From the NCBI GenBank assembly GCA_031282065.1, contig JAITEL010000105.1:1772-65771 (forward strand): DNA of 64,000 bases, in the 5' to 3' direction. This stretch comes from Treponema sp. (GTDB lineage: Bacteria; Spirochaetota; Spirochaetia; Treponematales; Breznakiellaceae). Numbering within the stretch: the first letter of the stretch is position 1; every line of letters begins with the position of its first letter. The position numbers and the translations under genes were made by a program. The notes beneath the pieces are model-generated. The model worked only from the letters and a program-made list of their open reading frames with translations, did no database searches and was not told the DNA's origin. This document shows, one piece after another, positions 4,979 through 64,000 of the stretch.

Positions 4979-6313
4979 TCATGAGAGAAACCGGTATCCC
5001 AGGGCCCGAAACCCCTTGCGTTTACAATCCCCCAGGCGATTAAACCCCGAAGGCTTCTTCCTGTCAAAGCGTTCTGCCTCAGACGCAGGCAGGGCCATGA
5101 TCACCATAGCTCCTGGGGAGAGCAGTGCGCGGAGCCCCTCCCAGAGGGGGATGATCCGGTCGGTTTGCGGCACGAATCGGGGAAAGCCCAGGATGAGCTC
5201 ATAGGTGCGGCCCTCTGGTTCCAGGGCAGCCGCGAGGGCTTCCCGGTTTATGCTGAGGTCTAAGCCGGCTATGGCAAGGACGGCTTGCGGGTACATATTA
5301 TATCGGGACGCTTCCAGAGCAAGGATATTCCTGCTGAAAAACACCCAACGGCAGCCCGGGGACGCCGCGGAAGGCTTTTCCTGGGCCAGGTACTCCAAGA
5401 ACCAGCGGGGAAGGTGTCCCTGACCAGGTTCATAGACCAGGATGGAACTCCGGGGAGGAAGCCTGAGCTTATCTGGGTGTAAGCGGCGTATCAGTTTGGC
5501 TGCCACCTGGACCGCTCCGCTGGGGTTGTCAAAGTCCTCTACTCCCTGGATGCTGTCCAGGGAGTAGCCTAAGCCCTCCAGGACATAAGCCCCGCGGCGG
5601 CGATGATACATAGGGTAATCCTGAAGCAGATGCCCTCCCGCCTGCACCGGCTCCAGGGGGAGAGGCGAAGCAGGGGGGCCGTACATGAAAACCCTATGCT
5701 CCCTTCCCGGTTCATCGTATTGCAAGGGAAGCTTTGCCCGGGCGATCTGAGCACGCAGAAAATCCGCCAGCGGATTAACCACCACGATGAGCACCGAGGC
5801 TCCCGGATTCAGCAAGGCCGCAGAGCGGCAGATAAAATCCGCCAAAACCGGTTTTCCTGCCTTGGCAGGGAGGTTGGAAATGATGAGGTCCCAGCGGGCA
5901 TGCCGCGGGCCGCTCAAGAGGGGCTCGGTATGGCTTGAAAGCAAGCCTGGAGGGATGCGGTTTTTTTGGGCGTTGTAGGCGGTTATGACCCGGGCCAGTT
6001 CGTCCCTGTCCTGGCAGCGGACCTGGCATTGTCCCGGGGGCGTATGCCCCGGGGCGAGCAAGGCTCCGGCTATACAGATGCCTATGACCCCCACCCCGCA
6101 GCCTGCATCCAGAACCTTCTGCGGCAGGGGCCGCCCTTGGCCCTGAGCCTGGTCCCACTGCCGGGAAAGCACTTTAAGCAGGAGCTCGGTGCCCGTATCC
6201 ACCGCAGCGGCGCTGAACAGGCCCTGGGAAAGGGCAAAAGAAAAGCCCTGGGCCCGGAACCTAAAGGGCACTTCTTTGCTTATATAGGCTTCTGCTCCGC
6301 GGCAAGGGCTCAT
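4979..6313 (-). CDS. class I SAM-dependent methyltransferase, two-lobed RsmC/RlmG-like
   Basis: SAM motif I VLDAGCGVGVIG and motif IV-like IISNLPAK in the N-terminal half. It starts 8 nt after efp on the same strand, so it is probably co-transcribed. Confidence 0.6.
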   Translation of the reverse strand: MSPCRGAEAYISKEVPFRFRAQGFSFALSQGLFSAAAVDTGTELLLKVLSRQWDQAQGQGRPLPQKVLDAGCGVGVIGICIAGALLAPGHTPPGQCQVRCQDRDELARVITAYNAQKNRIPPGLLSSHTEPLLSGPRHARWDLIISNLPAKAGKPVLADFICRSAALLNPGASVLIVVVNPLADFLRAQIARAKLPLQYDEPGREHRVFMYGPPASPLPLEPVQAGGHLLQDYPMYHRRRGAYVLEGLGYSLDSIQGVEDFDNPSGAVQVAAKLIRRLHPDKLRLPPRSSILVYEPGQGHLPRWFLEYLAQEKPSAASPGCRWVFFSRNILALEASRYNMYPQAVLAIAGLDLSINREALAAALEPEGRTYELILGFPRFVPQTDRIIPLWEGLRALLSPGAMVIMALPASEAERFDRKKPSGFNRLGDCKRKGFRALGYRFLS

Positions 6314-7206: not shown

Positions 7207-9525
7207 ATGAAACGCTCATCAGCTATCCACGTATGCATACAGGCAAGTCTGCTCATCCTCCTGGGCAGCGCGCTCTTAGGCTGCGCCTCCCCTCCTGCGG
7301 TGAATCCTGAACAGGAACGGCTTGCGGCAGAGGCACGGACGCGGGCGGAAGCCCGGGCTCAGGCTCAGGTGGAAGCCCAGGCTCAGGTGGAAGCTAAGGC
7401 TCAGGCGGAAGCCCGGGCTCAGGCGGAAGCTAAGGCTAAGGCACGGGAGGAAGCAACCCTGGCCATACTCCCCTTCACCGGCTTTGAGGGGGAGGAGGGG
7501 GAGACCATCGCGGAACTCTTCTCCTTTGAGAAGCCTATAAGCGATTCCTTTACCCCGGTGCCGCGGACCAGCATTATCCGGGCAATGCGGGATGAGCAGG
7601 GCTTTCAGGAGTCATCGGGCTTTACCAACCCGGATACCCTGGCTGCCATAGGCAGGCAGCTGGGCGCGCGGTACGTGGTCTGCGGCGCTAGTACCCGGCT
7701 GGGCAGCCAAAACCTGCTCATCATCTCCATACTGCACATAGAAGACCTGCGCCAGATAGCCGGGGACTTCCAAATCTGCCGGACTCCCGATGAGATACGG
7801 GGCAAGCTCCCTGCCATGGCGAAGGCCATTGCCGCGGCCATCCATGAGGATGTCTCGGCCCTGCCCCTGCTGGCCGTCCCTCCGGTGCAGTTATCCGGCG
7901 GAGCAGACAGCCGGGAAGCGGACACCCTGGCCCAGATACTGGCCTTACACCTGGTGAGAAGCGGGACCTATGCGGTGTATCCCCGCACCAAGAGCCTTGA
8001 ACAGGTGCAAAGGGAGTACGACAACCAGTTTGGGGGGGATGTGGCGGACGAATACCTGCCCAATCTGGGCCGGGGGACGAACCCGCGGCTGGTCCTGTCG
8101 GTAAGCGCCCGGAGCTTCGGGGGTACGGCTATGTTCAATGCGGCGGTCATAGACCTGGTGAGCGGGGTGCAGAAGGCCGGAGGCTCGGCAGACTATGAGA
8201 GTCTTGATAAGGCTCTGGCAGCTATGGAGGAGTTGAGTCTTAAACTGACCGGCCGCTGGGAGGCCGTACTCAGGGAGCGCGCTGACCACCACACCGCTGC
8301 AACAGAGGCCGCCTTTACCCGGGCCGTTGCCGCCATCAACGGCAACCCCGCAGGCGGCGCCTATACCATCACCCTAAACGGCAGTTTTACCAGCAACCGG
8401 GTTATCTTTCTTACCGGCAATGCCCCCAAGACCATTACCATCCAAGGAGACGGACCCGGGCGTACTATCAGCAATGACCGGGACCAGGCGCTGTTTACCG
8501 TACCGGAAGGCATAAGGCTGGTGCTGGACAATTACCTCACCCTGGACGGCAACCATAAGAATGCCTTTGTGGTGTCTGTAGAGAGCGGGGAGCTTATTAT
8601 GAAGGAGGGATCACGCCTGTGCAATGCCGAAGCCGGCGGCGTGTATGTCCACAGCTCCAGTACCTTTACCATGCAGGGGGGAACCATAAGCGGCAATACC
8701 GCATCCTCCTCCTTCTCTGGCGGCGGCGTGTATGTTGCCGGCAACGGCAGCTTCACGATGAAAGGCGGGACTATAAGCGGCAATACCGCATCCTCCTCCT
8801 TCTCTGGCGGCGGCGTGTATGTTGCCGGCAGCGGCAGCTTCACGATGGAAGGCGGGACTATAAACGGCAATACCGCATCCGACTCCTCCTCTGGCGGCGG
8901 CGTGTATGTCCATGGCGGCAGCTTCACGATGAAAGGCGGGACCATAAGCGGTAATACCGCATCCTTCTCCTCCTCCTCCTCCTACTCCTACTCTGGCGGC
9001 GGCGTGTATGTCGCCGGCAACGGCAGCTTCACGATGGAAGGCGGGACTATAAGCGGTAATACCGCCTCCTCCTCCTCCTCCTCCTCCTCCTCCTCCTCCT
9101 ACTCTGGCGGCGGCGTGTATGTTGCCGGCAGCGGCAGCTTCACGATGAAAGGCGGGACTATAAGCGCCAATACCTCCTCCGCCGCCGCCGCCGCCTCCTC
9201 CTCCTACTACTCCTACTCTGGCGGCGGCGTGTATGTTGCCGGCAGCGGCAGCTTCACGATGAAAGGCGGGACTATAAGCGCCAATACCTCCTCCTTCTTC
9301 TCCTCCTCCTCCTCCTTCTACTACTACTCCTCTGGCGGCGGCGTGTATGTCGCCGGCAACGGCAGCTTCACCAAGAAGGGCGGGGGTACTATAGACAGCA
9401 CCAACTCGGCAGAGTCGGGAAAGGCGGTGTATATACAGGAAGGTTCCAAACGACGCAACAGCACCGCCGGTCCAAGCGTGAACCTGGACAGCGCTAGAGC
9501 CGGCAGCGAAGGGGGCTGGGAATAA
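7207..9525 (+). CDS. large surface lipoprotein: Ala/Gln/Glu-rich repeat, two LpoB/CsgG-like domains, C-terminal Pmp-like beta-helix repeats
   Basis: Lipobox LLGCAS. AEARAQAQVEAQ periodic segment. Two modules of the ILPF...GARYVV type. Eight units of GGGVYVxGxGSFTMxGGTISGNTA. Confidence 0.8.
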   Translation: MKRSSAIHVCIQASLLILLGSALLGCASPPAVNPEQERLAAEARTRAEARAQAQVEAQAQVEAKAQAEARAQAEAKAKAREEATLAILPFTGFEGEEGETIAELFSFEKPISDSFTPVPRTSIIRAMRDEQGFQESSGFTNPDTLAAIGRQLGARYVVCGASTRLGSQNLLIISILHIEDLRQIAGDFQICRTPDEIRGKLPAMAKAIAAAIHEDVSALPLLAVPPVQLSGGADSREADTLAQILALHLVRSGTYAVYPRTKSLEQVQREYDNQFGGDVADEYLPNLGRGTNPRLVLSVSARSFGGTAMFNAAVIDLVSGVQKAGGSADYESLDKALAAMEELSLKLTGRWEAVLRERADHHTAATEAAFTRAVAAINGNPAGGAYTITLNGSFTSNRVIFLTGNAPKTITIQGDGPGRTISNDRDQALFTVPEGIRLVLDNYLTLDGNHKNAFVVSVESGELIMKEGSRLCNAEAGGVYVHSSSTFTMQGGTISGNTASSSFSGGGVYVAGNGSFTMKGGTISGNTASSSFSGGGVYVAGSGSFTMEGGTINGNTASDSSSGGGVYVHGGSFTMKGGTISGNTASFSSSSSYSYSGGGVYVAGNGSFTMEGGTISGNTASSSSSSSSSSSYSGGGVYVAGSGSFTMKGGTISANTSSAAAAASSSYYSYSGGGVYVAGSGSFTMKGGTISANTSSFFSSSSSFYYYSSGGGVYVAGNGSFTKKGGGTIDSTNSAESGKAVYIQEGSKRRNSTAGPSVNLDSARAGSEGGWE
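7345..7446 (+). repeat. 18-bp (6-codon) coding tandem repeat, about 5.5 copies
   Basis: gcggaagcccgggctcag / gctcaggtggaagcccag / gctcaggtggaagctaag / gctcaggcggaagcccgg / gctcaggcggaagctaag. Confidence 0.8.
8631..9400 (+). repeat. eight near-identical coding repeat units (about 84 to 114 bp) with expanding Ser/Tyr/Phe/Ala codon runs
   Basis: The core ggcggcggcgtgtatgt...ggcagcttcacgatgaaaggcgggactataagcg recurs from about 8636 to about 9335. Unit length grows 5' to 3' through TCC/TAC/TTC/GCC runs. Confidence 0.9.
9067..9099 (+). repeat. (TCC)11 in-frame trinucleotide microsatellite (poly-Ser)
   Basis: Eleven uninterrupted TCC codons, counted directly between gcc (9064-9066) and tac (9100-9102). 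Confidence 0.95.
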
Positions 9526-9557: not shown

Positions 9558-9655
9558 CGGGCCCCTTGAACATACTCGGCAAACAGGCCATACTGGTTTG
9601 GGCTTTTTGCAGCGGTGAGGCGCTGCAAAGAACAGCTTATAAAAGGAGAAATACC

Positions 9656-10372
9656 ATGATCGATTACTATGTAAAGCGCAGCGGACTAGAGGGTACAGAA
9701 AACCAGACCTGCCATGCGGTGGTTACCCATACCGAAGGGCTTAGCCAGGAGAACTTCATCAAAATGCTCAGGGAAGTGCTGAACATCAACGAGGGAGAGG
9801 CCAAACGGGTCATAGCAGGCATAGGGACCGCTGCCCGGAACCTCCTGTCCCAGGGCTGGAGCTTCAAGATAGAAGGCATAGGCTCCTTCAGCCTGAGCAT
9901 CACCGGCTCCTTCCCCAGCCCGGACGCTCCCTTTAATGCGGCCACGAACAAAATTGCCGTGCGCTTCCTGGCGGACAAGGAACTCACCGCGGCGGCGCAA
10001 AGCGCGGGCCTGAACCGGCTGCACGGGGTCGAACACGGTCCTGTCATTGATAATGTGGAAGACAAGGCCAGCGCCGCGATAAACGCCAAGCTCACCCCCG
10101 GACACGGAGTCCTGATAAGCGGCAAAGACATCAAGATAAGCGGCACCGACAGTACCGTAGGCATACACCTTATAGACGAATCAGGGAATGCCCTTACGGT
10201 GCCCTCCGGGGACATCCTGGAAAACGGCCCGACCAAACTGCTGTTCATCTGCCCTTCTTTGAGTCCGGGGGTCTATACGATACAAATAAGCACCCAATAT
10301 GCCGGAAGCAAGGAACTGGCCCACCCCCGCTCATACCTTTTTAACGCCCCTTTAACGGTAAGCGCCCCCTAG
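9656..10372 (+). CDS. HU-like DNA-binding domain protein with C-terminal Ig-like region (possibly DUF4469-type)
   Basis: aaaaggag RBS upstream of ATG 9656. The N-terminus resembles the HU/IHF fold pattern: ENFIKMLREVLNINEGEAKRVIAGIGTAARNLLSQGWSFKIEGIGSF. The family name is from memory and was not searched. Confidence 0.55.
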   Translation: MIDYYVKRSGLEGTENQTCHAVVTHTEGLSQENFIKMLREVLNINEGEAKRVIAGIGTAARNLLSQGWSFKIEGIGSFSLSITGSFPSPDAPFNAATNKIAVRFLADKELTAAAQSAGLNRLHGVEHGPVIDNVEDKASAAINAKLTPGHGVLISGKDIKISGTDSTVGIHLIDESGNALTVPSGDILENGPTKLLFICPSLSPGVYTIQISTQYAGSKELAHPRSYLFNAPLTVSAP

Positions 10373-10485
10373 TTAAGGCAAGGCTCTTGTCCTGGTTAAG
10401 ACAAGGCTCTTGTCCTAGTTAAGACAAGGTGCTTGTCCTAGTTAAGGCAAGGCTCTTGTCCCAGTTAAGGCAAGGCTCTTGTCCC
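10371..10485. repeat. 23-bp tandem repeat x5, each unit containing a GACAAG-GCT-CTTGTC type palindrome
   Basis: Units at 10371, 10394, 10417, 10440 and 10463 (agttaaggcaaggctcttgtccc and variants). The array starts inside the stop codon of the upstream gene. Confidence 0.95.
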
Positions 10486-10520
10486 AGGGCGGCTGTCTTT
10501 AAACCCTAAGGAGTAAACCC

Positions 10521-20339: not shown

Positions 20340-20420
20340 TCTCCGTCGCGGCAGGACGTAACGCTCCGTCGCGACAAGACGTAACGCTCCGTCGCGGCAG
20401 GACGTAACGCTCCGTCGCAC
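20340..20420. repeat. 23-bp tandem repeat, about 3.5 copies
   Basis: tctccgtcgcggcaggacgtaac / gctccgtcgcgacaagacgtaac / gctccgtcgcggcaggacgtaac / gctccgtcgcac. Confidence 0.9.
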
Positions 20421-30551: not shown

Positions 30552-30795
30552 TAAAGGTTTTACCGGCCCCCCGCAAAGTTCTACCGGTACCCAAAAATAT
30601 TTTACAGGTACCCTAAAAAGTTTTATCGGTACCCCAAAAAGTTTTACAGGTACCCTGCAAATTTCTATAGGCCCCCCATAAAGTTTTATCGGTACCCAAA
30701 AATATTTTACCGGCTCCCCACAAAGTTCTACCGGTACCCCTGAAACTTTTATCGGCCCCCCAAAAAGATTTTAAGCCGGCTAAAAAAGGCTTTGA
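30552..30795. repeat. about 21-22-bp tandem repeat, about 11 copies, with phased A/T tracts
   Basis: Units are of the type aaaaagttttaYcggtacccc. Each has an A/T tract of about 10 bp and a GC-rich half containing accggt/ggtacc palindromes. Confidence 0.9.
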
Positions 30796-30891
30796 GGCGA
30801 CATCGAAAACCTTTGGGGCAGCTCGGCCTCTTTACAGAAGCCCCGCTTCTCAGTATGATAGAAGCTTCCATATTAATAAGGAAGGATCATT

Positions 30892-39833: not shown

Positions 39834-39884
39834 ATGCTACTCCTTATCATCTTTGAAGGGTTCCAATCGCCCTGTTCAAGGTGT

Positions 39885-39902
39885 TTGAACCGCCCTGTTC
39901 AA
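39885..39902. promoter_or_regulatory. inverted repeat TTGAAC-N6-GTTCAA inside the cheR / MCP intergenic gap
   Basis: ttgaaccgccctgttcaa, read directly. It is flanked by two copies of tttgaagggttccaa, two copies of cgccctgttcaa, and the 12-bp palindrome gtgcttaagcac. Confidence 0.3.
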
Positions 39903-39965
39903 AGTGCTTTAAGCACCCGGTTTGAAGGGTTCCAACACAGGCTTAGAATCTCTCTATAACTACAC

Positions 39966-47851: not shown

Positions 47852-48076
47852 ATGGAGGCTAACATTTTTTGTAAAATGATAAATCTATTTTTAAAAAATG
47901 TTTATAATTTGAAAATACTTATTGAAATTAATATTGTAGAATATAAATATCAATCAAATATAAATATTAAACAAAATAATGGTATTAAGGAAAACAAGAG
48001 AGTAACAGAAGTTCTTTCTCAGGAGGAAATTGACCTGTTATTGACTGCAATAGTTAGTGATGATGAAAAGAAATAA
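47852..48076 (+). other. AT-rich islet with a 74-codon ORF whose C-terminal 24 residues mimic the FliM N-terminal CheY-binding peptide
   Basis: The C-terminal residues TEVLSQEEIDLLLTAIVSDDEKK are followed by a stop. The N-terminal two thirds look like translated AT-rich non-coding DNA. Coding status is uncertain. Confidence 0.25.
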
Positions 48077-48661: not shown

Positions 48662-49876
48662 TTACTTCGCGGGTGTCGCAATCAGCGTGTCGCTCGTGCC
48701 GCCGTCATAGCGGTCGTCTTCGTTATTACTAAAGGGCACAATCTTGCTGCCGCTGGTCTGGGATACGCCGCCTTTGGTATACGTACCGCCGGTGCCCCAA
48801 TTTGCCGCCGTGGCGTTATCATTCACATGCAGCGCCGCGTAACCACTCCTCACAATGTTGACAAGGCTTTGATCCGCGCCGTCGGGAAGACCGTAGACAT
48901 CGCCGTAAATCGTTCCGCCTTTCAGGGTGAACATGCTCTCTTCGCCGATGTCCACGCCGCCGCCGTTACCGCCGCGGCCGCCTTTTACGGTGTTACCCGA
49001 AATCACGCCGTCTTCCATGGTGAACGTGCCTCTCCACACGCCCACGCCGCCGCCTTCGGACCAATCGTCGCTTTCAGCGGTATTCCCGTAAATCACGCCG
49101 CCTTGCATGATGAACGTGCCGTCTTGCTCCACCCGTACGCCGCCGCCGCCTGAGCCGCGTCTACCCTTTGCGGTGTTCCCGGAAATCACGCCGTCTTCCA
49201 TGGTGAACGTGCCTCCTTCGTTCACCCTCACGCCGCCGGCCCCGGCCCAATTGTTATTCTCCTCGCTGCCAATACGGATGTGGGTGTTACCCGTAATCTT
49301 GCCGCTTTTCATGATAAAGTGGCCGGTTCTTCCATCACCGCCGCTCCGCGCGACTACCAATGGGTCGTTGTTGTCCGCCACCCCTACCAGCGTAACGCCC
49401 TCAAGGGTGAGTGTCCGGTTAGGGTTATCATTATTTACAGCCTGGACTACGAGGAGGTGCCCCGTGCCCTTCAGTTGGATGGTCCCGCTTCCCTTGATGG
49501 TCGCCTCACTTGCATCGCCTGCCAGTCGGACTCGCTCAGGCCCCGCGTTCACCGTGCCGTTCACGGTCAATGTCGCGTCGCGCAGCGTGAGCTCCGCGCC
49601 ATCTGCCGTCACCTCAAGCGTAACGCCCGCGGGTACGGTGAGATTGCCTGCGCTCGGTACGACGGCTTTGCCTACGAGCGTTACCGTGGCGTCGTCCACC
49701 GTCGCGATCTCATCTCCCTCTTCGAAGGCGTTGATGTCCGCCGCCAACTGCTGGGCAGCCTGCGGATCCTCCTGCTTTGCGCCGCCACCATCAGCCGCGT
49801 CAGTCGGACAGCCCGCCAGAACCAGACCCAATATCAGCAGAAGCGCCGGCAAGCCAAATATCCTGTTTTTCTTCAT
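48662..49876 (-). CDS. surface lipoprotein with Pmp-like beta-helix repeats
   Basis: AAGGAG RBS upstream of ATG 49876. Lipobox LVLAGC. Repeats GGTFTMEDGVISGNTAKG..GGGGVRV. The tracked 495-aa ORF extends upstream through non-coding palindromic repeats. Confidence 0.75.
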   Translation of the reverse strand: MKKNRIFGLPALLLILGLVLAGCPTDAADGGGAKQEDPQAAQQLAADINAFEEGDEIATVDDATVTLVGKAVVPSAGNLTVPAGVTLEVTADGAELTLRDATLTVNGTVNAGPERVRLAGDASEATIKGSGTIQLKGTGHLLVVQAVNNDNPNRTLTLEGVTLVGVADNNDPLVVARSGGDGRTGHFIMKSGKITGNTHIRIGSEENNNWAGAGGVRVNEGGTFTMEDGVISGNTAKGRRGSGGGGVRVEQDGTFIMQGGVIYGNTAESDDWSEGGGVGVWRGTFTMEDGVISGNTVKGGRGGNGGGVDIGEESMFTLKGGTIYGDVYGLPDGADQSLVNIVRSGYAALHVNDNATAANWGTGGTYTKGGVSQTSGSKIVPFSNNEDDRYDGGTSDTLIATPAK

Positions 49877-49946
49877 AGATAAACTCCTTTGCGTTTTATG
49901 CCGGCCGGCAAAACTGGTATGTATAGCCGCGTAAGCGGACTTCACC

Positions 49947-50394
49947 TTATGGAATGACGGCCGAAGCGACCGGCCCCCCCCATTGTCCGGCCTCGCCCCG
50001 CCGGTTCTCGTAGCGGCAGCACACGTAGGCCGTCTTGCCCGCGTCCTCCGCGTCAAACAAACCGTAGGTTTGTAGCAAACTCCGAATGCCAGCGCTACGC
50101 GCTGGCAGGATTGCTTCGGGCTTCGCCCTCGCAATGACGACTTTCCCACAACGCCCCCTCGTCATTGCGAGCACAACGCAAAGCGTTGCCCCGAAGCAAT
50201 CCACGATTACGGAATCACCGCCGAAGCCACCGGCCCCCACTGGCCCCGCAATGACGACCTTTCCGCTACGCCCCTCGTCCTATCCCCGCTCTGGGCTATG
50301 AGACTACCACTTTCCTCGCAATGACGCCCTTCCCTCAACGCCTCCCTCGTCATTGCGAGCACAACGCAAAGCATTGCCCCGAAGCAATCCACGA
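49947..50394. repeat. duplicated 3' gene fragments interleaved with nested palindromic (REP/MITE-like) elements
   Basis: The 3' end of the 50395-51117 gene recurs at 49947 (about 115 bp, diverged) and at 50207 (about 38 bp). A 95-nt nested palindrome lies at 50108-50202, with partial copies at about 50245-50285 and about 50313-50392. Confidence 0.85.
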
Positions 50395-51117
50395 TTACGG
50401 AATCACCGCGCTCGCTACCGGCCCCCACTGGCCGGCCTCGCCCTTGCGGTTCTCGTAGCGGCAGCATACGTAGGCCGTCATGCCCGCGTCCTCCGCATCA
50501 AACAGCAGCTTCTCCTTACGCCGCCGGGTAAACCGGTAGTGCGAAAGGCCCTTCCCGTCCGCGGGAACCTTCATCAGGTAGTGCTTGTCCGACGCCGCCT
50601 GTTCCAGGGTGGCTCCTCCGGGAGGCATGATGCCCAGATAGACCACATAGCCGTAGTCGCTTTCGGGAGCCAGCTCCAGAGTTCCCGCCAGGGGTCCCAG
50701 ATGGAGCGTCATGGCGTGGGGCCCGCCGGGGTAGCTCAAAGACGCCGCAGGCACACCGTCGGGGGCGGGAGCGGGCGAGGGGTGGGTGTCCTTGGGGCGG
50801 AAGCCCAGAGCGGCCCAGTCTCCTTCGGTAAGGGGCGGTATCTTGAAGTACCGGTCCCGGAAGAACCGCATCTTTGCCTCCAGCGCCTTAAACGCCTCCT
50901 GGCACTCCACGGTAATGACGCGGGTCCGCTCCGCATCGTTTTGCGCCTTCTGGAGCAGGTCTTGCGCCGTGGAACACAGGCTCTCCAGTTCCGTAAACTC
51001 CGCCTCGGGCACTCCCCAGGCGGTCCGCCTTGCCGCCGTCAGGTACAGAATCCAGCTCAGACACATTGCCAGGATTCCCGTCCGGGGTCCCGGCATCCAA
51101 TCGGTGTTTTTTGCCAT
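50395..51117 (-). CDS. hypothetical protein, 240 aa
   Basis: GAGGAG RBS upstream of ATG 51117. No motif recognised. The C-terminal half looks beta-rich and ends in VCCRYENRKGEAGQWGPVASAVIP. Confidence 0.6.
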   Translation of the reverse strand: MAKNTDWMPGPRTGILAMCLSWILYLTAARRTAWGVPEAEFTELESLCSTAQDLLQKAQNDAERTRVITVECQEAFKALEAKMRFFRDRYFKIPPLTEGDWAALGFRPKDTHPSPAPAPDGVPAASLSYPGGPHAMTLHLGPLAGTLELAPESDYGYVVYLGIMPPGGATLEQAASDKHYLMKVPADGKGLSHYRFTRRRKEKLLFDAEDAGMTAYVCCRYENRKGEAGQWGPVASAVIP

Positions 51118-51167: not shown

Positions 51168-51195
51168 GACCTAAACGGTGAAAGGGCTGAGTCAA

Positions 51196-51447
51196 AAGTT
51201 GAAACTTCTGACCCGGAAATTGAAACTAATGACTTGGGATTTGAAAATTCTGACTCAGAAATTGAAAATCCTGACCTGGGATTTGAAACTAATGACTTGG
51301 GATTTGAAAATTCTGACTCAGAAATTGAAAATCCTGAGCCGGGATTTGAAACTTTTGAGCCGGGATTTGAAAATTCTGACTCAGAAGTTGAAAATCCTGA
51401 CCTGAGATTTGAAAATCCTGACTTAAAAATTATAAGGGCTGACCTGT
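51196..51447. repeat. 21-bp tandem repeat, about 12 copies, core TTGAAAAYYCTGAC
   Basis: Exact 21-bp register from 51196, e.g. gatttgaaaattctgactcag / aaattgaaaatcctgacctgg / gatttgaaactaatgacttgg. Confidence 0.95.
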
Positions 51448-51542
51448 CCGGTACACCGAATGAGTAGCTTTGACCTAGTTTTGGGGGATTGGGATCAAGC
51501 TGCGGTTTGTCCGCATACAAAAGCGGGGAATCAGTTAGGTAC

Positions 51543-51573
51543 TTGACACACCGTCTTCTTAATAGAATATAAT
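51543..51573 (+). promoter_or_regulatory. consensus sigma70-type hexamers TTGACA and TATAAT with a 19-bp spacer
   Basis: TTGACA at 51543-51548 and TATAAT at 51568-51573. The spacer is longer than the 17-bp optimum. Confidence 0.35.
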
Positions 51574-51636
51574 CGTGAGCCGTGAGCCGTGAGCCGTGAG
51601 CCGTGAGCCGTGAGCCGTGAGCCGTGAGCCGTGAGC
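51574..51636. repeat. (CGTGAGC)9 heptanucleotide microsatellite
   Basis: Nine perfect copies, counted directly, starting immediately after the TATAAT hexamer. Confidence 0.95.
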
Positions 51637-51795
51637 CGGAGGGCCTGTTCTGTCTTGTTACCTGCCGGTTTCAAAAGCATGAAAGTATTCTAAATACTTA
51701 CATAAAGAATGTCAAGCAAAAAATACTTCCTTTCCTTATCACTAGCCTCAAGTCCCCCCGGAATTTTGTCCAGACCATCGTGTTCTAGAAGCAAA

Positions 51796-51830
51796 GGCCG
51801 CTTCGCTAAGATGGCGGGGCGGCCCTTTTT
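51796..51830. terminator. bidirectional terminator hairpin between the candidate plus-strand transcript and thrC
   Basis: ggccgc (51796-51801) pairs with gcggcc (51819-51824). On the plus strand it is followed by cttttta. On the minus strand it follows the thrC stop and is followed by tttg. Confidence 0.5.
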
Positions 51831-60301: not shown

Positions 60302-61750
60302 TTAAAGGCTCTGGATGATCGCTTCCGCTGCACAGCGGCCATCGGCAATGGCCCGGACCACCAAACTTGCCCCATGCCGGGCATCTCCGGCGGCCCAGAC
60401 TTTGGGGTTGGAGGTGTGGAAGCTGCCCCGGGTGCGGATATTGCCCCGCTCGTCCAGTTCAAGTCCAAAATCCCTCACCAAACCCTCCTGTACCACATGG
60501 GTAAAGCCCATAGCCAGCAAGACCAGGTCCGCGCCAATTTCAAAATCCGAGCCGGGAATCTCGGTCATAAGCGGTCTGCCCTGCTGATTCGTCCAGTTGA
60601 CCTTAAGCGCATGGATGGCCTCCACCTTCCCGCCCCGGCCGATAAAGGCTTTGGTGTTGACCCACCACAGACGCTCTCCCCCTTCCAGGTGGGAGCTGGA
60701 GGTTTTAAGCACCCGAGGCCAGAGCGGCCAGGGTTCCTCCGGGGGCCTATGCTCAGGCGGCTTGGGCAGCACCTCTATCTGGGTTACCCGCAAGGCCCCC
60801 TGGCGGTTGGCCGTCCCCACGCAGTCTGAGCCCGTGTCCCCTCCGCCTATAACCACCACCCGTTTCCCATAGGCGGTGATAGGTTCAAGGCCCCGGCTCT
60901 CCCCGGCCAGGGTACGGTTTTGGAGGGAAAGGTAATCCAGGGCCTGCACAATGCCGGCGTTTTCCCGGCCCGGCACCGTGATGTCCCGGGGCTCCCGGGC
61001 GCCTATGGTGAGCAGCACCAGATCATAGGATGCTTCCAGGGTGCGCGCTTCCACCGCCTGGACTGCTTCGGCCGCAGTGCCGAAACCGTAACGGCCCGAA
61101 CCCACCGGGGTATTGGTTTTGAAGGTGATCCCCTCTGCTTCCATGAGCAGGATACGCCGGTCAATAAAGCTCTTATCCAGCTTGAAATCAGGAATGCCAT
61201 AGCGCAGATAGCCTCCGAGCTTACGGTCCGCTTCGTAGACCGTAACGGAAAAGCCCCCCCGGTTGAGGTAGTAGGCCGCGGCAAGGCCGGAAGGCCCGGC
61301 TCCCAGGATGGCCACCTTTTTCCCGTTCCGCTTGCGGGGGGGGCGCGGGATAACCAGCCCCAGGGCAAAGGCCCGTTCAATAATGGCCAGCTCATTCTGC
61401 CGGATGGTTACCGGATCATCATTCGCGCCCAGCACGCAGGAAGCCTCGCAGAGGGCCGGGCATACCCGGCCGGTAAACTCGGGGAAGGGGTTCGTGTCCT
61501 CCAGCAAGGCCCAGGCCCCCGGCCAGTCCCCGCGGTACAAACGATCCTGCCATTCAGGCATCATATTGGAGACAGGACAGGCCCAATGGCAAAAGGGTAC
61601 GCCGCAATCCATACAGCGGGCCGCCTGATCCTGCCGTTCATGATCGGGAAGCCCTACCTCTACCTCGCTGTAATCATTGACCCGTTCCTCCACAGGCCGG
61701 TACCCAGAAACCTTTCTCCGTATTTTTAAAAAGCCCTTGGGATCACCCAT
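60302..61750 (-). CDS. gltD: glutamate synthase small-subunit-like NAD(P)H oxidoreductase
   Basis: MGDPKGFLKIRRK N-terminus. Fe-S Cys clusters CMDCGVPFC and CPALCEASC. GAGPSGLAAA dinucleotide fold. No gltB is present in the window. Confidence 0.85.
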   Translation of the reverse strand: MGDPKGFLKIRRKVSGYRPVEERVNDYSEVEVGLPDHERQDQAARCMDCGVPFCHWACPVSNMMPEWQDRLYRGDWPGAWALLEDTNPFPEFTGRVCPALCEASCVLGANDDPVTIRQNELAIIERAFALGLVIPRPPRKRNGKKVAILGAGPSGLAAAYYLNRGGFSVTVYEADRKLGGYLRYGIPDFKLDKSFIDRRILLMEAEGITFKTNTPVGSGRYGFGTAAEAVQAVEARTLEASYDLVLLTIGAREPRDITVPGRENAGIVQALDYLSLQNRTLAGESRGLEPITAYGKRVVVIGGGDTGSDCVGTANRQGALRVTQIEVLPKPPEHRPPEEPWPLWPRVLKTSSSHLEGGERLWWVNTKAFIGRGGKVEAIHALKVNWTNQQGRPLMTEIPGSDFEIGADLVLLAMGFTHVVQEGLVRDFGLELDERGNIRTRGSFHTSNPKVWAAGDARHGASLVVRAIADGRCAAEAIIQSL

Positions 61751-61824
61751 ATGTTTCTCCTCTTGCTATGACCTTAGCACCAAGGGACATGAGGGTCAAG
61801 GGAAGCGGGAACTCCTCCGGGGAT

Positions 61825-62013
61825 GGGTGTGGAACTTTCAAGTCCGGGTGTGGAACTTTCAAATTTGGGTGTGAAACTTCCAAATTTGGGTATGAAACTT
61901 CCAAACCTGGGTGCGGAACTTCCAAACCTGGGTGTGAAACTTCCAAATCCGGGTGTGGAACTTTCAAATTTGGGTATGGAACTTTCAAACCCGGGTGTGG
62001 AACTTCCGGGGAC
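61825..62013. repeat. 21-bp tandem repeat x9 upstream of gltD
   Basis: Exact 21-bp register from 61825: gggtgtggaactttcaagtcc / gggtgtggaactttcaaattt / gggtgtgaaacttccaaattt and so on. Degenerate copies flank it on both sides. Confidence 0.95.
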
Positions 62014-62023
62014 GGGCGGGGAA

Positions 62024-63034
62024 CTAGGGGCTAAAAAGCTCCGGGTATAAGAAGGCCGCCAGTTGGCTAACTCCTTCACTATACCGAAAGGTGGGGGAAG
62101 AAATAAGCTTTTCATCAATAAAAAGCACCCGCTTTTCCCGGATGGCTTTTATGGCGCCGAAGCCCGGCCGTCTAAGCAGATCCGTGAGGGTTTTTGCCCT
62201 ATTCATGGCCCCCTGCTGCACAATGTAGGCGTCTATGGAGTCGGCATTGCACAGGATTTTTTCCGCCCCATACGGGGCGATAGAACTGCCCGGGCTTACC
62301 GGTTCTGCGTTGGCGGCTATATTGACCGCGTTGAGGGTTTCAATGGCATAGGCAGGGAGAGAAGCGGCAGATACGGTACGGTTTTCTGCAGCAGTGGACT
62401 CAAAAAAGACCCTTGGTTTGTGCGCTGTGCCCGCGGCAGTGCTGCTGAGCCGCTGTAAGGTACCGTGAAAATCACGGAGTTTGTCTTGGGCTTCCTGTTC
62501 CTTGCCGGTAAGGAGGGCAAGAACGCGGATATACTCATCGAAGTCTGCCATGCGTTCCGGGTATAAGGAGACCACCAGGATCCCCGCTTTTTCAAGTTCC
62601 GCAATGTAGGCCGGGTGGGAACGACGGATAAAGGGACGGATGAGAACCAGGTCCGGGCCTTCGGCAATGATATATTCAGGGTCTCCGGTGTAATCGAATT
62701 TCGGCAGAGCGTCTGCCTGGGCCGGGTAGGTACAGGTTTTATGTCCCCCTATGACCAGGTTCCCCGCGCCGATTGCGAAAAGATTCTCCGTATGGGCAGA
62801 ATACAATGCAATGATACGGCGAAAGGGCTGCTCCACCGTAAGCCTCTTTCCCTCATCATCACTGAAAGAAAGCGCCCCCCCGGCTTGCGCCTGGGTTTGC
62901 TCCTGTTTGGCACAAGAAGCCGGCAGGAGGAGGCTTGCCCCCAGCATAAAGAGGAGGCTTCCCAGAGCGCTCAGACCCTTTATACGCAGAGGGCATACAA
63001 GTCCGGGGTGTCTTTGTGCCTTATCGCATGGCAT
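62024..63034 (-). CDS. ABC transporter periplasmic binding lipoprotein (iron-complex / cobalamin / haem type)
   Basis: Lipobox LLPASC. The FRRIIALYSAHTENLFAIGAGNLVIG pattern is typical of cluster A-II (BtuF/FecB-like) SBPs. A 14-nt overlap with cbiK. Confidence 0.7.
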   Translation of the reverse strand: MPCDKAQRHPGLVCPLRIKGLSALGSLLFMLGASLLLPASCAKQEQTQAQAGGALSFSDDEGKRLTVEQPFRRIIALYSAHTENLFAIGAGNLVIGGHKTCTYPAQADALPKFDYTGDPEYIIAEGPDLVLIRPFIRRSHPAYIAELEKAGILVVSLYPERMADFDEYIRVLALLTGKEQEAQDKLRDFHGTLQRLSSTAAGTAHKPRVFFESTAAENRTVSAASLPAYAIETLNAVNIAANAEPVSPGSSIAPYGAEKILCNADSIDAYIVQQGAMNRAKTLTDLLRRPGFGAIKAIREKRVLFIDEKLISSPTFRYSEGVSQLAAFLYPELFSP

Positions 63035-63899
63035 CGGCTACGTGCTGCACGATATGGGCTTGCAACTCAGGATATTCCCCCAGGCCCCGAAGAACGGTTT
63101 GCACCGAGAAACCTTCGGCGGTGAGTATGGATTTCCATGAATCCTCTTCGTCTCCGGCCATATCGTTATTGGCGTGATCCCCTGCGACGATCATAAGGGG
63201 TAAGAGGGTCAGCTTCTCAAGACCTGCCTCGCGAAGCTGGACTATCACATCGTCCAATGAAGGACTCGCCTCGACCGTGCCTATGAAATAGTTGGAGAGC
63301 CCTTGTTCTTTGAAGAGTGCTGCGAGTTTGGTATAATCCGCATTAGATGCAGCTTCGGTCCCGTGTCCCATAAACACGATAGCCGTATCAGGGCCTGCAT
63401 AGGTGTTGGTCTCTTCACGCAGTATGCTCACCAGGGCGGTATAATCCGCCTCAGATGCAAGGACCGGTTTACCGTATTTGATGCTCCTGAACTTACTTTC
63501 AAAGGGCTGTACCTGGGAGAGCATTTCTTTTTGTTCTATGCCCTGCATAAGATGGGTAGGCTGTACGATAAGGTCCTGCGCCCCCTCTGCTACAAGACGG
63601 TTCAGCGCTTCAGTAACATTGTCGATCTTCTCCCCGTCCCGCTGGTAAATGTGGTCGATGACGATTTGACTGGTAAAGGCACGGCGTACCGAATACGCCG
63701 GATACGCACGGGCTATCGCGTCTTCTATGGCGCCTATGGTTTTTTGTCTTGACTCGTTGTAGCTTGTGCCAAAGCTTACCACCAGAATGACCGGTTTCTC
63801 CGGTTCCGCCTGCGGGGTAGCCACACTACGGCAATTCAAAAAGGAAAGGACGAGGAGAAGCACCGCCAGGGCCCCTCCTGTTTTTTGCAGATTATTCAT
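63021..63899 (-). CDS. cbiK: sirohydrochlorin cobaltochelatase CbiK family protein with signal peptide (exported form)
   Basis: AGGAGG RBS upstream of ATG 63899. Signal/lipobox LLVLSFLNC. CbiK blocks ILVVSFGTSY, RRAFTS, IVQPTHLMQGIE, FMGHGT. Confidence 0.75.
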   Translation of the reverse strand: MNNLQKTGGALAVLLLVLSFLNCRSVATPQAEPEKPVILVVSFGTSYNESRQKTIGAIEDAIARAYPAYSVRRAFTSQIVIDHIYQRDGEKIDNVTEALNRLVAEGAQDLIVQPTHLMQGIEQKEMLSQVQPFESKFRSIKYGKPVLASEADYTALVSILREETNTYAGPDTAIVFMGHGTEAASNADYTKLAALFKEQGLSNYFIGTVEASPSLDDVIVQLREAGLEKLTLLPLMIVAGDHANNDMAGDEEDSWKSILTAEGFSVQTVLRGLGEYPELQAHIVQHVADAMR

Positions 63900-64000
63900 G
63901 ATTCTGCCTCCTGAAATAGTTTCAGCATTGATAGGGGGCAAAATACGCCACAGGGCCCTAAGCACTTCATTCATATCCTCCGGTATGCGCAGATATATGA

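Follow-up and report, generated by a model that had tools for sequence, protein, structure and literature searches.

The stretch of 64,000 nucleotides analyzed here, positions 1,772 to 65,771 of contig JAITEL010000105.1 from a termite-gut Treponema sp. (assembly GCA_031282065.1; hereafter the window, which is also the part of the genome visible for this analysis), raises a simple question. The whole space between the stop codon of a substrate-binding protein (SBP) gene and the promoter of a gltD-like gene is taken up by head-to-tail copies of a 21-bp unit. Is this array, named w61 for its position near 61.8 kb, a regulatory site of that promoter, or is it the product of repeat growth at this place? 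The answer we favor, with a confidence slightly better than even, is that w61 is a young, lineage-specific intergenic minisatellite: it would have arisen by slippage or unequal exchange, aided by the dyad symmetry of its unit, and have grown as far as the upstream stop codon and the -35 box allowed. It belongs to one of several loosely related array families of the clade and would at most modulate the gltD promoter in a copy-number-dependent manner.

The locus is composed of the following features.

60302..61750, minus strand: gltD-like gene, a stand-alone gene resembling the small subunit of glutamate synthase
61757..61762, minus strand: ribosome-binding site (RBS) GAGGAG of the gltD-like gene
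61771..61779, minus strand: extended -10 box TGcTAAGGT, with the hexamer at 61776-61771; its TG and TAAGGTCA are invariant in the gltD-upstream alignment
61794..61799, minus strand: gltD-like -35 box, TTGACC, at a distance of 5 bp from w61 and conserved in seven related loci
61804..61824, minus strand: proximal degenerate unit of w61, ATCCCCGGAGGAGTTCCCGCT, which resembles the V unit
61825..62013, minus strand: nine clean 21-bp units, read on this strand as (A/G)(A/G)nTTTGRAAGTTYCAYACCC
61993-62013, minus strand: last clean unit, a variant called the V unit, GTCCCCGGAAGTTCCACACCC
62014..62034, minus strand: distal degenerate unit of w61, TTAGCCCCTAGTTCCCCGCCC, which holds the stop codon of the upstream gene (62026-62024)
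62024..63034, minus strand: Peripla_BP_2 SBP gene, its stop codon inside the distal degenerate unit
63021-63974, minus strand: CbiK gene, on the upstream side of w61

Tandem Repeats Finder (TRF) reports w61 at 61824-62007 with a period of 21, 8.8 copies, 84% matches and no indels. Together with printing in register, this confirms the nine units in exact 21-bp register from 61825 to 62013 that an earlier, sequence-only reading of the window had described. With one degenerate unit at each end the array counts approximately 11 units, arranged head-to-tail without spacers as in a tandem repeat or minisatellite. The same reading had the array filling the gap between the SBP stop (62024-62026) and the gltD start codon (ATG, 61750-61748). 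This also holds: at one end the array includes the Peripla_BP_2 stop codon, and at the other it comes within 5 bp of the gltD-like -35 box. A CRISPR (clustered regularly interspaced short palindromic repeats) array was rejected, as the units are contiguous and lack spacers.

On the plus strand the unit reads GGGTRYGRAACTTYCAAAnnn (parts GGGTRYG-GRAACTTYC-AAAnnn). Its core 9-mer, GRAA-C-TTYC, is a quasi-palindrome. It has two common forms, GGAACTTTC and GAAACTTCC, each nearly the reverse complement of the other, and a second small palindrome, CAAATTTG or ACCCGGGT, follows it. The invariant columns of the unit cluster in the core. Differences from the consensus comprise 24 transitions vs 2 transversions. 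The V unit and both degenerate end units share CCCC..AGTTCC(C)CG where the other units have ATTTGRAAGTTYC.

Before any biological reading, it has to be asked whether w61 is an assembly artefact or a coding heptapeptide repeat. The period of 21 is a multiple of 3, four open reading frames (ORFs) of 75-114 aa cross the array, and many 21-bp matches elsewhere are coding repeats; one of them, L081, was rejected as a relative of w61 since its 37 units lie inside a 1019-aa protease ORF. The ORFs that cross w61, however, have neither an RBS nor homologues: one search of its translated frames against protein databases gave no match, and another returned only unrelated repetitive proteins. The separately assembled Logan contig L264 (SRR14710905) has 0 mismatches to window positions 60983-64000 (3,018 bp) and an equal copy number; thus, w61 is not the quirk of one assembler. 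In addition, the units differ from each other, such that a unique assembly is possible, and the flanking genes are complete. We give an artefact or a coding repeat next to no credence.

Evidence on the age of w61 comes from relatives that lack it. Seven related gltD loci were compared with the window (L001, L265, L266, L267, L268, L269, and L270; 91-94% gltD protein identity). In uncultured termite-gut metagenome-assembled genomes (MAGs) of Treponema/Spirochaetaceae, the gltD-like protein has counterparts of 91-94% identity; its identity is 80% to the protein of Treponema primitia ZAS-2 and 77% to the one of Leadbettera azotonutricia. All seven loci keep the promoter TTGACC-17-TGnTAAGGT together with the RBS. 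Aligned, the upstream regions show an invariant CTTGAC, a 17-nt spacer, an invariant TG-n-TAAGGTCA, and AGGAG; the invariant TG-n-TAAGGTCA after a 17-nt spacer marks the promoter as one of the extended -10 type. The conserved promoter, in its longer form TTGACC-17-TGnTAAGGTCA, has an unusual -10 hexamer, and as only 3 of its 6 bases match TATAAT, a simple promoter scan does not call it.

Downstream of the gltD-like gene lie genes for a TPR protein, a long GreA-like (GRAD) protein, a VWA protein, and two PALP enzymes. This order is kept in all six related loci that reach far enough; L267 is a 2.4-kb fragment, and downstream order was judged on the other six. The upstream neighbor, on the other hand, is different in each of the five lineages with upstream sequence: a MoCF-biosynthesis gene, a serpin gene, a gene for an energy-coupling factor (ECF) S-component, an unknown gene, and a methyl-accepting chemotaxis protein (MCP) gene, as opposed to Peripla_BP_2 in the window. 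Since every relative has another upstream neighbor, the edge of the gltD promoter is a recurrent rearrangement junction or hot spot, and w61 lies exactly there. Six lineages including the window thus show six upstream neighbors, with a fixed block made up of about 60 bp of promoter and the downstream genes.

An array of the w61 type occurs at none of the seven related gltD loci. As these loci keep the promoter, the absence of the array marks w61 as young; it arose after the split of these lineages, for which identity at 4-fold sites is 0.59-0.67. The same absence argues against a conserved regulatory site. For a regulon, a site conserved before orthologous genes would be expected, and the seven orthologous promoters have no w61 array. 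Judging from these loci, the gltD promoter does not appear to need w61. Because seven close relatives use the same conserved promoter without the array, w61 represents a natural experiment.

Where did the repeated DNA come from? Homology between the window and the array-less locus L265 spans the proximal unit 61804-61824 and ends at the first clean unit. At the junction, the window reads CATCCCCGGAGGAGTTCCCGCTTCCC|TTGACC and L265 reads CATCTCCACCGGAGTTCCCCGTTTCCC|TTGACC. The proximal degenerate unit is thus homologous to single-copy DNA upstream of the promoter in L265, and the 25 bp adjoining the gltD -35 box are GC-rich ancestral DNA. The promoter-upstream stretch of L265 and the two end units of w61 have CCCCGGA..AGTTCC(C)CG in common. 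Also, the V unit matches single-copy L265 upstream DNA (TCC-CCGGAAGTTCC vs TCCACCGG-AGTTCC; p=0.02), and the distal degenerate unit shares AGTTCCCCG with it. These matches are what one would expect if the array developed in place, either out of promoter-upstream DNA or by recombination with it.

For w61 as a young minisatellite, the following course may be proposed. Replication slippage or unequal recombination would have multiplied, head-to-tail, a 21-bp segment adjoining the DNA that directly precedes the gltD -35 box. The dyad symmetry of the unit (GRAA-N-TTYC, then CAAATTTG) would let misaligned strands pair and probably favored the amplification. The array would have grown until it reached elements under selection, namely the upstream stop codon and the gltD -35 box. 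Its end units may have retained the older CCCCGGA..AGTTCC form, while the interior was presumably homogenized and drifted, for the most part through C-to-T and G-to-A transitions. The result, a phased and dyad-rich block of about 230 bp that reaches from about -37 to -270 and is probably curved, could modulate the gltD promoter. A change in copy number would tune this effect on a promoter that should work without the array.

The dyad symmetry invites readings at the level of RNA as well. As the unit holds two palindromes, w61 folds on itself on both strands. For the minus (sense) strand the folding energy is -75 to -77 kcal/mol (z=-5 to -6), and the plus strand reaches z=-3; self-complementarity is strong on either strand, with z from -3 to -6. 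No terminator was found by scan between the SBP stop and w61. The array might act within a transcript: it would form either an intercistronic spacer or the 3' tail of the mRNA of the upstream operon, and its long imperfect hairpins would stabilize or attenuate this mRNA, as proposed for repetitive extragenic palindromic (REP) sequences and bacterial interspersed mosaic elements (BIMEs) or for mycobacterial interspersed repetitive units (MIRUs). A location between co-directional genes in eight of nine arrays, an orientation kept within families, and the transition-only variation of w61, which is compatible with G-U wobble pairing, all agree with such a role. Against it, the antisense strand is equally self-complementary, a property of DNA dyad symmetry and not of one strand. 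Neither w30, an array at 30.5 kb, nor the array family named C shows excess folding. Rfam covariance models gave 0 matches at the gathering score across the whole window, gltD has its own conserved promoter downstream of w61, and spacers between co-directional genes are the majority class in any genome. We consider a function as RNA very unlikely.

At the level of DNA geometry, 21 bp correspond to two helical turns (helical repeat 10.5 bp in the model), and therefore all units of w61 face one side of the helix. In a wedge model, the ratio of end-to-end distance to contour length is 0.594 for w61, the lowest value and hence the strongest curvature among 3039 stretches of 189 bp (mean of the window 0.947). 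Arrays of 21 bp with permuted columns have a mean ratio of 0.85 (sd 0.125). In terms of the model, the two-turn phasing is real, yet it is a property of the period and is not clearly selected in the sequence. Curvature as a selected property finds no support beyond the periodicity; column-permuted controls are nearly as curved.

The window contains further tandem arrays, in all three with 21-bp units (about 10 units each), three with 23-bp units and one with 22-bp units. Three of them are needed for the argument.

51176..51448, plus strand: w51, the 51-kb array, about 11 units of 21 bp, ATTTGAAAATTCTGACyyrGr
30553..30825, plus strand: w30, the 30.5-kb array, 10.5 units of 21 bp, AAAAGTTTTACCGGTACCCCA, and degenerate units
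39851..39942, plus strand: w39, the 39.9-kb array, 3.7 units of 23 bp, TTCAAGGTGCTTGAACCGCCCTG, between the cheR stop codon and the RBS of an MCP gene

According to the sequence-only reading, w61 and w51 share a core that points in both cases toward a transcription unit, and a candidate promoter at 51543 was named as the start lying beyond w51. The similarity of the two units appears marginal: a cyclic comparison of position weight matrices (PWMs) gives p=0.037, a gapped cyclic alignment z=2.0 and p of about 0.08, and the exact core TTTGAAAATTC occurs in only three of the 11 w51 units. The best PWM fit is on the same strand, unlike the proposed one. The argument from orientation is ambiguous, since the core is quasi-palindromic (GRAA-N-TTYC or GAAAATTC), and for a quasi-palindrome "pointing toward a gene" has little meaning. 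The candidate promoter at 51543 has a 19-nt spacer and is not called by the scan. Instead, the left end of w51 overlaps or abuts TTGACT (51194-51189) of the minus-strand gene 50395-51117, with TAGGTCAT 16 nt further. This TTGACT-16-TAGGTCAT before gene 50395-51117 resembles the gltD promoter TTGACC-17-TGnTAAGGTCA. In w51 a 63-bp higher-order repeat of 88% identity is superimposed on the units, and such 63-bp structure in sister arrays argues for amplification in blocks.

Two arrays that had been left unlinked, w30 and w39, belong to the same picture. The unit of w30 shows no significant similarity to w61 or w51 (p>0.5), although it shares the period and an AAAA-G-TTTT palindrome, and its degenerate units stop 5 bp before the rpmB promoter TTTACA-17-TATGAT. 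With respect to synteny, the closest orthologue of the SBP at w30 (75% identity, L247) has another neighbor. Thus w61, w51, and w30 adjoin a -35 box, whereas the arrays at 39.9 kb and 10.4 kb (39851-39942 and 10368-10487) lie within a likely operon and so close to an RBS that a promoter would not fit. As the arrays border either a -35 box or an RBS, they seem to fill any non-essential spacer and follow no single regulatory geometry.

These observations bear on the alternative that w61 is a landing pad for a dimeric DNA-binding protein, be it a transcription factor or a protein of the architectural or partition type. Bound cooperatively to units on one helix face, such a protein might activate, repress, or insulate the gltD promoter, or organize origin-proximal DNA. 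Quasi-palindromic cores in all three 21-bp arrays (GRAA-N-TTYC, GAAAATTC, AAAAGTTTT), a second palindrome centered 7.5 bp away in each of them by sequence inspection, an excess of dyad symmetry on both strands, and invariant columns concentrated in the core would fit a dimer. The period of two helical turns, the position of three arrays against a -35 box, the recurrence of unit types in other genomes, and the distance of about 10 kb between the gltD block and dnaN-recF in relatives point in the same direction. Set against this are the seven relatives that keep the promoter without the array, and the different units of the three arrays, that of w30 being unrelated, a diversity that calls for more than one protein. 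Elsewhere, arrays of this class adjoin an RBS and not a promoter, no regulator gene is consistently adjacent, and there is no plasmid or phage match.

Isolated binding sites are missing as well. The core TTTGAAARTTC (at most one mismatch) matches 12 times in the window vs 2.3 expected, and nine of the 12 matches fall within w61 and w51. Outside the arrays three matches remain vs 2.3 expected, i.e., chance level, so that within 64 kb the enrichment beyond the arrays implied by a common partner is not seen; solo or paired units of any array family were likewise found nowhere outside the arrays in the window. On balance, a landing pad appears unlikely.

Counterparts of the arrays occur in other genomes. 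The w61 unit matches a 16-unit intergenic array of Treponema sp. Nc350_bin204 (L116 1161-1500, z=6.5), with which it has the 14-mer TGGAACTTCCAAAT and the variant unit GTCCCCRGAAGTTCCA in common. The w51 unit matches a 4-unit array of L266 (17479-17562, TTTGAAAATTCTCGGAGAATT, z=4.3), and the w39 unit an 11-unit (10.8) array of L266, the 94% relative, at 6001-6248 between cbiQ and pyrG (z=9.6). Unit types thus recur at unlinked loci in different genomes, as in a dispersed repeat family. L116 was found by a pattern search of a genome collection, so that the pair w61/L116 is ascertainment-biased; the two L266 arrays are free of this bias since L266 was fetched through gltD. In each of the three pairs, the two arrays lie at different loci.

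Array families of 21-23 bp are accordingly distributed in a patchy manner across termite-gut Treponema genomes, and w61 is a member of one of them. The contention that the arrays are not random minisatellites is upheld insofar as several arrays occur in the window and related units in other genomes; a conserved regulatory site, on the other hand, is not found. At L116 1726-3449, directly upstream of the L116 array, two adjacent genes encode cNMP-binding (Crp-like) proteins, one of them TPR-fused. At L266 5838-5970, a 61-bp tandem duplication (x2.2) of the RBS and start region of pyrG adjoins the 23-bp array. The units of the w39/L266 family, TCAAGGTGCTTTAACCGCCC, each carry a TTCAAG-GTG-CTTGAA hairpin motif.

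Do the arrays spread by a mechanism of their own? They could be products or passengers of a mobile or recombination-driven element that seeds unit families at new sites and between genomes. The same families at non-orthologous loci (w61/L116, w51/L266, w39/L266), a patchy distribution (seven arrays in the 64-kb window, but in about 170 kb from relatives chosen without bias only the two of L266), and the position of w61 exactly at a synteny breakpoint would fit, as would the frequency of 21-bp arrays in termite-gut Bacteroidales MAGs. However, terminal inverted repeats, target duplications, and conserved flanks are missing, the domains of the flanking genes include no transposase or integrase, and nothing related was found in viral, plasmid, and phage collections. 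A flanking direct repeat, D2 (61727/62032), was tried as a target-site duplication and rejected, since each of its copies lies in conserved coding sequence. The units of the window and of L266 are 62-87% identical, which is near the 67% to be expected from neutral divergence (about 0.33 differences per 4-fold site); common descent with rearrangement and loss therefore suffices, and mobility is not required. Finally, the proximal unit of w61 is ancestral local DNA. We hold a dedicated spreading mechanism to be highly doubtful.

The scan of the genome collection used a loose pattern (TTGRAANT three times at 21-bp spacing), and heptamer repeats (TTGAAAG etc.) dominate among the matches listed, next to L116 and 21-bp arrays in several phyla. 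Likewise, a metagenome scan with a two-unit pattern returned coding heptapeptide repeats as most of the matches listed. Long non-coding 21-bp arrays were seen in termite-gut Bacteroidales MAGs (L027, L028, L109, L110) near ileS, infB, and a SusC-like gene, one of them with a perfect 16-bp palindrome per unit, and L169 contains three adjoining 21-bp arrays in the order A, B, inverted-A. Among arrays on the contigs L027, L028, L109, L110, and L169 that lie outside the selection by the search pattern, 21 bp is the commonest period (9 of 39). In the literature available, searches on 21-bp tandem repeats and on intergenic repeats in connection with Treponema or termites found nothing relevant, and no description of the 21-23-bp array families.

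Several observations sit uneasily with w61 as a minisatellite that arose by slippage. Its variation is confined mainly to a few columns of the unit. Copy-number polymorphism, the hallmark of a minisatellite, would have to be read from more genotypes than the single one represented here, L264 being identical. The curvature of w61 lies at only the 4.5th percentile of column-permuted arrays, while w51 and w30 are typical. The L116 array carries both the main and the variant unit of w61 at an unrelated locus, which birth in situ leaves unexplained. Orientation relative to flanking co-directional genes is the same within pairs in three of three cases (chance 0.125). Last, three arrays of identical period and similar length within 31 kb show more order than simple slippage predicts.

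Some of these points would be accommodated if the dyad-symmetric 21-23-bp arrays of termite-gut Treponema formed a new class of sequence-specific tandem-array element, each family made, spread, or maintained by a dedicated protein, either a cooperative binder that wraps phased sites or an activity that generates repeats or recombines them. Unit types shared by unrelated loci in different genomes, the variant unit among them, would then be accounted for, as would their position at rearrangement junctions. We regard it as a distinctly unlikely proposal, though one with consequences: if a binding or generating protein exists, the arrays are a handle on a new repeat system. If, conversely, the arrays are neutral minisatellites and no more, they warn against calling a regulatory motif on the strength of sequence alone. 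In either case, a phased repeat of about 230 bp placed against a conserved promoter in one lineage makes an effect on transcription directly measurable. The 21-23-bp arrays also coincide with breaks in synteny. For termite-gut Treponema they might be of use as strain markers, and they might drive genome rearrangement.

The remaining repeats of the window are recorded for completeness. A 23-bp array at 10368-10487, (CCTAGTTAAGGCAAGGCTCTTGT)x5.2, has strong self-complementarity (z -3.6 to -5.4) and begins at the stop codon of a gene for an HU-HIG/DUF4469 DNA-binding protein (9566-10372); a DUF3782 gene follows, with 20 bp between the array and its RBS. The yajC-secDF genes are preceded by another 23-bp array (x3.4, 20341-20418), and a 1-kb AT-rich spacer after the dus gene contains a 22-bp array that is itself AT-rich (x4.2, 47863-47954). 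Between w51 and a strong promoter-like site on the minus strand (TTGACA-17-TAGAAT, 51715-51687) a perfect heptamer array, (CGTGAGC)x9.3, occupies 51574-51638, and a bidirectional terminator with a 13-bp stem follows at 51796-51824. Taken together, these elements could represent a small RNA, for which Rfam gives no match, or a heptad operator array. Large coding repeats occur in ORF 7207-9525 (87/114 bp, at 8686-9384) and in ORF 48662-50149 (93 bp, at 48955-49238), the latter without a Pfam match; both ORFs probably encode surface proteins.

How, then, does w61 compare with known systems? Resemblances to a CsrA sponge, DnaA boxes, parS half-sites, ArgR boxes, and CodY boxes were rejected as partial or half-site matches by eye only. 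Like upstream curved DNA and UP-elements, w61 brings phased A/T blocks directly before the -35 box, but any array of 21 bp is phased, and the 25 bp next to the gltD -35 box are GC-rich and not an A/T-rich UP-element. Plasmid iterons and centromeres (F sopC, R1 parC, pSK41 parC) also consist of units of about 20 bp set at whole helical turns, with small inverted repeats and often beside a promoter. Each of these arrays adjoins its own rep or par gene on a plasmid or phage and has a known binding protein, whereas w61 lies among chromosomal housekeeping genes; its neighbors are CbiK, Peripla_BP_2, gltD-like, TPR, and GreA-like genes with no rep or par gene among them, and blastn of w61 against PLSDB and INPHARED gave no match.

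The REP/BIME sequences of proteobacteria are closer, being short palindromic units, exclusively intergenic and sometimes clustered, in species-specific families; a role in mRNA stability or the binding of an architectural protein is proposed in both cases. Yet REP units measure about 35 bp, alternate in orientation, are separated by linkers, and are tied to REP-associated tyrosine transposases (RAYTs). The Treponema units are strictly direct and contiguous, all of those in w61 being 21 bp long, so that w61 falls outside this class; no RAYT or transposase domain was seen in genes flanking the arrays. Cyanobacterial short tandemly repeated repetitive (STRR) sequences differ by units of 7 bp that are not palindromic and give no argument from helical phase. 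They agree with the arrays described here in conserved short units found only in non-coding tandem arrays, at many loci of related genomes, and the window holds a heptamer array, (CGTGAGC)x9, as well.

The MIRUs, reportedly characterized by Supply et al. as dispersed intergenic minisatellites with a variable number of tandem repeats, belong to another phylum, and their units of 46-101 bp contrast with the dyad-symmetric 21-23 bp found here, where no small coupled ORF was shown. In their arrangement they are nevertheless similar to w61 and its relatives: direct tandem repeats between co-directional genes, which start at or overlap the upstream stop codon, fall into several sequence families over many loci, and keep their orientation to the flanking genes.

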